From Octopus vulgaris (taxonomy: Eukaryota), in assembly GCA_951406725.2 (NCBI GenBank), contig OX597828.1, forward strand, positions 75,392,001 to 75,456,000: a stretch of DNA of 64,000 nt, read 5' to 3'. Of this stretch, positions 20,865 to 23,403 are shown one piece after another; the stretch's first letter is position 1, and every line of letters starts with the position of its first letter. A model generated the notes under the pieces. The model was not told the DNA's origin, made no database searches, and saw nothing but the letters and a program-made list of their open reading frames with translations. The position numbers and the translations under genes are program-made.

Positions 20865-23217
20865 TGGAAACATTACTGACAGCAGAATGGTTTACCAAAT
20901 AAATAAAGAAGAAATTTGGTTTAGAAAAATGTGCCAAAGCAATCCTGAAAAAGGAAAATTAGTTCAGAGTAGCAACATTACACTAGATAAAGCAAATGAA
21001 ATAAGAGAATTAGACCAAAGCCAGATATACAAATACTTAGGAATCAATGAACTAGATACGATACAGCAGACTCAAATGAAAGAAGATAAAAATGGAATAC
21101 TATAGACGAGTTAGATTAATACTAAAAATAGAGCTCAATGCGAAAAACACGATAATAAGTATCAACACGCTAGACGTCCCAGTTATAAGTTACAGTTACA
21201 ATATTCTTAACTGGACTCTAAATGAACTAATCAAAATAGACAGGAAAACAAAAAAAATAATGACTGGATTTAGGATGCACCACCCAAAATCTGACATAGA
21301 AAGGTTATATATACAACGTATAGAAGGTGGTAGAGGCCTTATACAGCTAGAAAACTATTACAAAATAACCATTATAGGACTACAGAAATACCTACTTCAG
21401 AAGCAAGGAAAACTGATACAAATAGCCATAAAAACACGAACAAAACAAAAAACTGTTTTCTGTCTTTAAAGAAGCTAACAAATACAAAAAAGAAGCCATA
21501 GTACCTAACAACTATTAAGAAAAAGAAGAAACATCAAAAGCTGTAAAAAACTGGAACGGATCATGATAAAACGATGACAAGAAAAGCCCGTTCATTGCAA
21601 ACTAAACAGAAAAGAAATAGACAATGTAATGTTCAAACAATGGCTGAGAATCTCAGGACTCAAAGCAGAGACTGAAAGATTTTTAATTGCAGCACAAGAT
21701 CAAAGCCTCCCCACCAGAAATTACCAAAACATGCAATGAAAAGAGATACAAGTAACTGCAGAATATGTGGAGATGGAGAAGAAACAATAAATCATATCGT
21801 CCCTGGCCGCGCAGTCCTGGCTAAGAAGGAATATTCTGACACGACTGAGTTGGGACCTATATACACTGGAAGCTATGCCGACCCTATGGAATGACAACAG
21901 AAAAAATATGGTACAGGCAGACGCCAGAATAGGTAAAAGAAAATGAGAAAGCAACTCGGGGATATGTTAATAGAAATAGAGAAATTAAGGCCAATAGACC
22001 GGATATAGTTGTCAGAGATCACCAAGCAAAAAATGCTTTCTAATCGATGTATCAATACCAACAGATGACAATGTTTCTCTAAAAGTGACGGAGAAACTTT
22101 CAAAATACAAATAGGTAACTAAAATGTAGAGCTGTTGTGGCGGACGCCTCCAGGTGAGAAGTGAGCGGGTCCGTTACTAATAAATAGTGGACAAACTCAG
22201 TAAGTAGTGTCAGTCGGTGAGAAACGCTGTTCAGGCCAGTCACGCAGACGACGAAGTTACGTTATCATAATGCGGAATATAGTGGTGACGAGGATTCGGA
22301 GCTCACGCAGTGGAAAAATGTTACAAATCCCGAGGTGGGATTTGAACTTCACACAGTGAAAAGTAAACTACACACAGTGAAAATATATAAAAAAAATTCT
22401 GAAGAAAAAATGTCTGAGAAAACTTGAACTCCAACACAGAATTGAACTATACACAGTGAAAAATAATATACACACAGTAAAAAATAATATACACTCAGTG
22501 AAAAAGTATATAAAAAAGATTCTGAAGAAAAAGTGTCAGATAAAATTGAAACTAACACAGAACTGAACAACACACAGTGAAAAATAATATAAGTCCGTTC
22601 AAAGTATTTAAGTAAGGTCGCTATATGTAGCAGCGATACCAGTAAACAATGTAGACTGGTACTACCTGCGGCATTTTGAAGAAAAATATATATAATTCTG
22701 TGTGGAACAAGAAAAAAATCTAAATAAGAAGAGAAAAATAATTCTGGTTAGAAGAAAAAGAAATGAAAAAGATATGTTGTGTTGAAAGAAGAGAAGAAAA
22801 TCTCAAGGTGGTGGTGTTGTGGCAGACGCCCGCAGGTGAGAATTGGGCGGGTCCACTACTAATACATAGTGGACAAACTCAGTAAGTAGTGTCAATCAGT
22901 GAGGTACGCTGTTCAAGCCAGTTACGCAGAAAACGAAGTTTCGTCATCATAATGCGGGACATAGGAGCCTAAAAACAAACAATTCCTATGATAGTGGATG
23001 CATTAGTTGTGATAAAAAATATTCAGACAAATACATAACAAAAACACCAGGACTTACATACAGAAAATAGCACTACTAGGTACTGTACATATCCTACGTA
23101 AAACACTTTCTATACAGTGAAAATAAGAGCATCACAACAAACCACAGCATATATCCAAAGCACACAGGGTTGCGCTCGATAGTGCAGTGAAAGCAGTGAT
23201 AAAAATAAGACTACTGA
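20865..23217 (+). mobile_element. Decayed 5'-truncated R4/Dong-like non-LTR retrotransposon (RT end, CCHC finger, RLE), interrupted by a TRIM-like element
   Basis: Frameshifted peptides FGLEKCAK, YKYLGI, IDRKTKKIMTGFRMHHPKSDIERLYIQRIEGGRGL, LIAAQDQSLPTRNY, CRICGDGEETINHIV, NRPDIVV...LIDVSIP...EKLSKYK. After the insertion it resumes as QKIALLGTVHILRKTLSIQ*, then a 3' UTR and an (AAT)n tail. Confidence 0.92.
22133..22963 (+). mobile_element. Non-autonomous miniature LTR retrotransposon (TRIM-like), 831 bp
   Basis: Two ungapped 149-bp direct repeats (22133-22281, 22815-22963; about 20 mismatches by eye) starting TGTTG. PBS tggtgacgaggat at 22283-22295; purine-rich tract before the 3' repeat; TSD agagc/ggagc; non-coding interior. 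Confidence 0.9.
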
Positions 23218-23274
23218 ATGATAATAATAATATTAATAATAATAATAATAATAATAATGATGATAATAATAATG

Positions 23275-23317
<43 letters not shown>

Positions 23318-23403
23318 CAATAATAATAATAATAACTATAATAACAACAATAATAACAACAATAACAACAACAATTAATAATAATAATAATAATAATAAT
23401 AAT
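23217..23403. repeat. (AAT)n/(AAC)n microsatellite (tail/target of the R4-like element)
   Basis: Direct reading. Confidence 0.97.

Follow-up and report, generated by a model that had tools for sequence, protein, structure and literature searches.

Within the 64-kb window of Octopus vulgaris DNA, the whole stretch that was analysed, an 831-bp element occupies positions 22133-22963. It is non-coding and decayed, and it lies inside a copy of a LINE (Table 1). The first-pass annotation described two ungapped 149-bp terminal repeats with about 20 differences. The alignment bears this out: the LTRs align without gaps and differ at 20 positions (86.6% identity, K2P 0.15, BLASTN E about 1e-47), comprising 14 transitions and 6 transversions, with 7 of the 20 at CpG. 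As also annotated, one base separates the 5' LTR from the primer site (G, 22282).

Table 1. Positions of the element, its parts, and the surrounding LINE in the window
Feature	Position	Strand	Description
Host LINE, presumably R4/Dong-like	21146..22127	+	RT end, CCHC knuckle, first part of restriction-like endonuclease
Left TSD, AGAGC	22128..22132	+	First base G>A relative to target
5' LTR	22133..22281	+	149 bp, TGTTG...ATA; U5 end three bases shorter than in the family
Primer binding site, TGGTGACGAGGAT	22283..22295	+	Pairs at 12/13 bases with the 3' end of host tRNA-Ser(GCT)
Second tRNA-complementary box	22296..22308	+	tRNA positions about 47-58, preceded by a 5-base skip; predicted extended primer site
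8-bp hairpin	22324..22352	+	Overlaps decayed second tRNA-complement copy
Two 121-bp tandem units	22350..22591	+	Decayed leader motifs (GAACT.CACACAGTGAAAA)
Polypurine tract, decayed (AAGGTGGTGG)	22805..22814	+	G-rich, abuts the 3' LTR; family form AAAGGGGGAGG
3' LTR	22815..22963	+	149 bp, three terminal bases missing here too
Right TSD, GGAGC	22964..22968	+	5 bp; empty sites of paralogs
Host LINE, remainder	22969..23400	+	Rest of endonuclease, 3' UTR, (TAA)n tail; from paralog alignment

The interior consists mostly of decayed repeats of a leader unit, and L089, a relative that carries gag, has the motif of the 121-bp units in its own leader. The hairpin comes from a fold prediction; the same stretch has a local match to the tRNA antisense that was equalled by 3 of 300 shuffles. 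A purine-rich tract had been noted before the 3' repeat. A polypurine tract (PPT) is indeed present, but it is the G-rich stretch abutting the LTR and not the A-rich run that precedes it; CTCAAAGGGGGAGG occupies this place in the family and in its gag-pol relatives. A tblastn search with seven gag-pol pieces found no coding remnant in the element, whose longest stop-free frame is 132 low-complexity codons on the minus strand. An Rfam scan of the element gave 0 matches at E<=1, and ARAGORN called 0 tRNA genes over the window.

The host LINE carries a CCHC knuckle and a PD-(D/E)xK endonuclease after the RT and ends in a TAA-repeat tail; from these motifs and this tail, we take it to be R4/Dong-like. 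The copy is 5'-truncated and disrupted by stops and frameshifts. Its left flank had 3590 first-look candidates in the genome, and a stop-free stretch of a paralog matched 21146-22040 at 60-75% identity (tblastn). As an empty-site test, each of the two flanks was aligned on its own to 11 paralogous copies of the LINE. The paralogs span both flanks, in agreement with the annotated nesting in an R4/Dong endonuclease region, and in nine of the 11 the flanks abut or overlap by no more than 5 bases. The paralogs carry GGAG/GGAA only once; therefore, the original target was GGAGC, and the left copy mutated from G to A. The annotated 5-bp target site duplication (agagc/ggagc) is thus upheld by the empty sites. 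The peptide KMWSLKT, proposed to be restored on removal of the element, corresponds to RMWSLKT or RMWNLKT in the paralogs.

The left junction is bridged by contigs from X2, X4, and X6, which are labelled as three organisms, with 3-4 differences in 167-299 bases; the insertion is therefore common to those three. Elsewhere the nesting is reversed: (TAA)n runs within other family copies contain Dong-like LINEs (L060 1930-2640, and L068-L070 from about 960), the latter being three near-identical loci no more than 60 kb apart on C22. Dong-R4 elements are described as abundant in octopus (PMC13282606, PMC8967140).

A dispersed family of non-coding LTR elements

A search with the whole element returned 390 first-look candidates and a search with the LTR 338; the best 40 of 390 and the best 40 of 338 were scored. 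The scored matches have 68-86% identity and are spread over many chromosomes. At these loci, the LTR almost always runs to about 152 bp and ends in ...GACATATCA, with G and then the primer site behind it. A PPT-plus-LTR-start pattern gave 30 anchored 3' LTRs; the PPT is conserved at 30 family places and decayed in the window copy. A 5' LTR was found within 1.5 kb of 16 of the 30 anchored 3' LTRs, and these paired copies measure 595-1397 bp. Among the 13 paired copies with both ends called, nine have TSDs matching at 4 or 5 of 5 positions. Loci with miscalled ends (L003, L013, L016, L024, L050, and L053) were left out of the first TSD counts; L013 and L016 were later re-called. Solo LTRs with perfect TSDs were found at L045, L059, and L061; the element belongs to a multi-copy family with paired and solo forms.

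The internal region of the family is modular and 300-1100 bp long. Over all members, the length is 595-1544 bp, and the longer ones hold captured or nested DNA. We found gag or pol upstream of the PPT at none of the 30 anchored 3' LTRs, and a search with seven gag-pol pieces over 77 further loci and the window matched nothing lying between family LTRs. The case that would have undone the first-pass annotation, in which the element is an isolated product of deletion and the other copies are long gag-pol elements, therefore failed (pol upstream in 0/30).

Several loci were considered as long copies or as coding partners and rejected. Eleven loci with a leader and no nearby 3' LTR (L068-L078) contain no gag-pol, and other repeats interrupt their 3' parts. 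At L175 (LTR followed by gag) and at L003, L066, and L152 (pol nearby), the coding pieces are not enclosed by the two LTRs. At L003 (287-2532), a decayed Gypsy element has a family copy inserted in its integrase region.

Longer members (L072 1630-2016, L078, L158, L036, L066/L209, L180, and L182) contain a segment, at most about 390 bp long, that matches residues 14-141 of a 476-aa uncharacterised protein of O. bimaculoides (P0009) at 57-72% identity, with no Pfam match. This piece, which is missing from the window copy, is likely a captured fragment of a host gene. A family 3' LTR with its PPT was also seen inside a multi-kilobase repeat on C8, C9, C10, and C29 (L181, L182, L186, L204, and L066; L206-L209); we take the fragment adjoining it to be Tc1/mariner-like.

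The LTR-LTR distance (K2P) is 0.13-0.24 in most copies of the family and about 0.09-0.10 in two. If the published octopus substitution rate of 0.0036 per million years (PMC13282606) applies, the window copy is about 21 million years old; at this rate, the family would be about 12-33 million years old, both estimates being inflated by CpG decay. A wave of LTR elements in O. vulgaris is placed at a JC distance of 0.12 (PMC13282606). The window copy is old and dead and lies within another dead repeat; nothing suggests a function in the host.

Primer tRNA and candidate Gypsy helpers

A first tRNA pattern found no match in the genome because the host T arm differs. A pattern for the 5' end found 39 tRNA-like places, and ARAGORN called tRNA-Ser(GCT) at all four loci tested. 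The complement of the 3' end of this tRNA is the 13-base primer site of the family, matched at 12 of 13 bases in the window copy and at 13 of 13 in 6 other places. The annotated complementarity to tRNA-Ser(GCU) thus holds against the host's own genes. Clusters of tRNA-Ser(GCT) genes or of copies resembling them lie at G000:C3:70854361-70896830 and C7:103873444-103889795, with about 19 and 6 pattern matches, respectively.

Beyond the primer site, tRNA bases 59-63 are skipped, and complementarity then continues for about 12 bases, covering the T loop and the 5' T stem. The duplex of the window copy with the tRNA has a predicted energy of -33.3 kcal/mol, and 6 of 300 extension shuffles were as low. 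Of six further A-type copies picked for comparison, five gave a similar extension duplex, as did the gag families G3 and G4. The extension box is weak in G2 (49/300 shuffles as low) and absent from the B-type leader (246 and 222 of 300 for L017 and L054). These cases were hand-picked as good matches and counter-examples, and 60 junction rows served as the unselected set; the extension reached p<=0.05 in 23 of the 60, although the rows share descent and the 23 tests are not independent. A bipartite primer site consisting of the 13 bases and the T-arm box, similar to that of Ty1, is predicted from these duplexes. Alternatively, the box could be a remnant left when copying overran into the primer tRNA.

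An exact junction pattern led to a broken gag (L035). A search with this gag returned 105 candidates, and scoring the best 40 of 105 revealed several decayed Gypsy families. L124, of family G1, is 4.55 kb long with 265-bp LTRs, and its domains follow the Gypsy order DUF7083-protease-RT-RNase H-integrase (Pfam on separate stop-free stretches). L121, of family G2, has 215-bp LTRs; it is an internally deleted relative and likewise has the Gypsy order. In G1 and G2, as in the non-coding family, the LTR starts with TGTTG and ends with ATA(T/A)CA, a G separates it from the Ser primer site, CTCAAAGGGGGAGG precedes the 3' LTR, and the TSD is 5 bp. These shared features support the first-pass reading of a non-autonomous, TRIM-like element with a Gypsy-like partner. 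The annotation had called for a search for an autonomous element sharing LTR ends and primer site; the decayed G1 and G2 share both, but among the best 30-40 places per search we found no gag-pol element with the whole 152-bp LTR. G2 shares LTR bases 1-60 with the family at about 74%.

Several TRIM copies hold the G1 leader as far as the start of gag, the A-type leader motif was found in G4, and the TRIM interior combines pieces of the leaders of at least two gag families. The LTR-LTR K2P of the gag-pol copies is 0.12-0.26. Because cis signals, leader pieces, and age range are shared, we infer that the decayed gag-pol families are the likely helpers of the TRIM family. Among 599 candidates, eight matches to the gag were found, to DUF7083 gag-pol proteins of about 1400 aa from flatworms and to a K02A2.6-like protein from Culex. 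The helpers have a Ser primer site, a 5-bp TSD, short LTRs, and a length of 4-5 kb. The pattern given for the Mag lineage in Culex is a Ser/Leu primer site, a 5-bp TSD, short LTRs, and 4-5 kb (PMC3286476), and by these features the helpers appear to be Mag-like. Mag-lineage elements are reported to make up more than one third of mollusc Gypsy elements (PMC6238403).

We consider it probable that the 831-bp element is a decayed copy of a multi-copy, TRIM-type family that was likely mobilised in trans by a Mag-like Gypsy element primed by tRNA-Ser. The TRIM RNA would be packaged in helper particles, reverse transcription would be primed by tRNA-Ser through the 13-base site and the second, T-arm-pairing box, and the helper integrase would insert the resulting DNA.

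There is a small chance that the family instead arose by internal deletion from a cognate autonomous element with the same 152-bp LTR, now extinct or unsampled, and that G1, G2, and G4 are only cousins. The lack of a shared whole LTR in the gag-pol families found (best 30-40 places per search) fits this possibility, and the 195-bp form described below may represent a solo LTR of this cognate element. Evidence against this reading is that none of the 30 anchored 3' LTRs and none of the 77 other loci has gag-pol inside, and that the mixture of leaders derived from different gag families fits recombination inside common particles.

Dead-on-arrival derivatives, which lost gag-pol copy by copy after insertion and whose short form was never mobile, would account for the widely differing internal lengths (elements of 595-1544 bp); however, the same non-coding modules recur at independent loci, each with its own TSDs, and no copy examined retains a gag-pol remnant, making this very improbable. 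A Helenus-type TRIM driven by Pol III from a tRNA-derived promoter is scarcely credible: the element does contain tRNA-related sequence, but this is antisense and internal, the LTRs have neither an A or B box nor similarity to tRNA (283 and 295 of 300 shuffles were as good), Rfam had no match, and the TSD is 5 bp as against the 4 bp given for animal Helenus (PMC10886601).

LTR termini and the 195-bp form

The ATA end of the window copy had been interpreted as a possibly decayed ACA. Other copies end in ...ATATCA, so the window copy has rather lost three bases, and the same three terminal bases are missing from both LTRs. Within G000, the searches recovered the shortened 5' junction from the window copy and L048 alone, and the 3' LTR of L048 is normal; no TA-ended subfamily is therefore shown in G000. 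A second, closely related LTR-primer junction that also lacks these bases (window 22134-22354) is present in contigs of X3 and X4 and was not found in G000; the X3 contig, record 11, aligns over 221 bases without a gap and with 14 differences.

The U5 of both LTRs is templated by the RNA's 5' terminus, so that a parent with the loss would give the double three-base loss. The parent of the window copy would already have lacked the three U5 bases, leaving both LTRs short, and the integrase would have joined the TA end with the normal 5-bp duplication. The window copy probably integrated with a TG...TA end; since the TSD is a normal 5 bp, the integrase likely accepted TA. We regard it as unlikely, though less so than any of the alternatives above, that the TA ends arose after insertion, through one deletion spread by gene conversion or through two deletions. 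The identical loss at the 5' LTR alone in L048 indicates that such a deletion can occur once in place. However, the two LTRs differ at 2 of the last eight positions, which argues against conversion, and the second junction lacking three bases (X3 record 11) comes from contigs of other runs.

In a shorter, 195-bp form, a related LTR is joined to G and the primer site, and an 18-base linker then leads to a further LTR end. This form was found at 24 distinct loci (L141-L169, L171; e.g., L148 1501-1695 and L155 1501-1738), and its LTR is 71-81% like that of the window copy. The linker is predicted to be able to fold back onto the primer site. TSDs matching at 4-5 of 5 positions were found in 10 of the 18 loci with fixed ends, compared to 10 of 306 cross-pairs; L141 was added by eye as an eleventh locus with a TSD. 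No PPT precedes the form at the 24 loci. A pattern for the primer site that would follow it in a parent with an interior matched 2 places, both of them doublings of a 43-bp unit without an interior, and the extended LTR occurs at none of the 30 PPT-anchored 3' LTRs.

In the leaders at L072 660-815, L078 630-780, and L032 1460-1610, and in the G1 leaders L080-L086, the "LTR end + primer site" unit is present in two or three tandem copies. The LTRs of G1 contain a relic of such a unit and end just after it. Together, the tandem leader units and the G1 relics suggest that LTRs grew through shifts of the priming site. On the plain reading, the 195-bp form represents solo LTRs of an unsampled element with an extended LTR. 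It is also conceivable, although doubtful, that LTRs grow by swallowing spent primer sites and that the 195-bp unit was integrated directly as single-LTR DNA and is not a leftover of recombination. A hairpin would then mask the old primer site, and priming would move to a downstream copy of the LTR end and primer site. If this were true, the 195-bp unit would be the smallest LTR-type insertion unit, below SMART, for which a length of 292 bp is given (PMC3281118).

Comparison with known systems

TRIMs had been annotated as sparsely reported in animals. This overstates their rarity: they are reported from bivalves, hymenopterans, and cestodes (PMC6934838, PMC10886601, PMC4558846, PMC3532108), and Helenus TRIMs from six animal phyla (PMC10886601). 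The octopus element is shorter than about 1000 bp, has terminal repeats within 100-250 bp, a tRNA primer site, and a PPT, lacks coding capacity, and has dispersed copies with their own TSDs, as is typical of TRIMs; it lacks the tRNA-derived A/B boxes in the LTR and the 4-bp TSD of Helenus (TRIMp3). In the literature, the scope of this comparison, we found no TRIM family from a cephalopod and no use of the phrase "duplicated PBS." The papers found on octopus non-autonomous LTR/Gypsy elements describe no such family, and the supplement of PMC10886601, with 0 matches for Octopus, Sepia, and Euprymna, lists no cephalopod Helenus or Ajax. The annotation of O. vulgaris has 141 LTR consensus sequences, 25 of them unclassified (PMC13282606), and its Zenodo library, Repbase, or Dfam may already hold the family, unnamed. 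The family is new but its kind is ordinary, miniature elements being already known in other animals, and a few of its details are odd. It adds a cephalopod family to the animal TRIMs, and its significance is modest; the link to a helper, through primer site, PPT, termini, leader pieces, and age, is better supported than in most reports of animal TRIMs.

By description, the family resembles biv-TRIM, which is molluscan, non-coding, and under 1 kb, with direct repeats of 100-250 bp, a PPT, and solo and variant forms (PMC6934838). The descriptions also set the two apart: biv-TRIM has repeats of 202-218 bp, an interior of 77-80 bp, and no clear primer site (PMC6934838), whereas the octopus family has 152-bp LTRs, a modular interior of 300-1100 bp, and a clear tRNA-Ser site. 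Helenus and Ajax are likewise animal TRIMs tied to Gypsy helpers by identity of the primer site, and some of their bivalve families use tRNA-Ser (PMC10886601); in contrast to these, the octopus LTRs have no tRNA or 5S promoter, and the TSD is 5 bp instead of 4 bp. The non-autonomous LTR elements of Culex resemble the octopus family in having a non-coding interior of tandem repeats (PMC3286476). However, the Culex elements are 1.6-14.6 kb long and young, with more than 98% LTR identity, whereas the octopus elements are shorter than 1.6 kb, have 80-90% LTR identity, and contain repeats derived from the leader.

The predicted extension of the primer site recalls boxes 0 and 1 of Ty1, where a short primer site is followed by downstream complementarity to the tRNA (PMC3592414). 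The Ty1 site was shown by probing, in a Copia element using tRNA-iMet (PMC3592414), whereas the octopus site is predicted, uses tRNA-Ser, and belongs to the Gypsy group. As for the termini, TGTA is one of seven non-TGCA motifs listed with 5-bp TSDs (LTR_retriever, 10.1101/137141); TG...TA ends are reported in plants, mostly in Copia (10.1101/137141), whereas in octopus they occur in one copy, perhaps two, of a TG...CA family. The family may serve as a natural record of three mechanistic details: of a bipartite tRNA-Ser primer site, as predicted for a lineage of the Gypsy group, of the tolerance of integrase for a TA end, and of LTR extension by captured primer sites.
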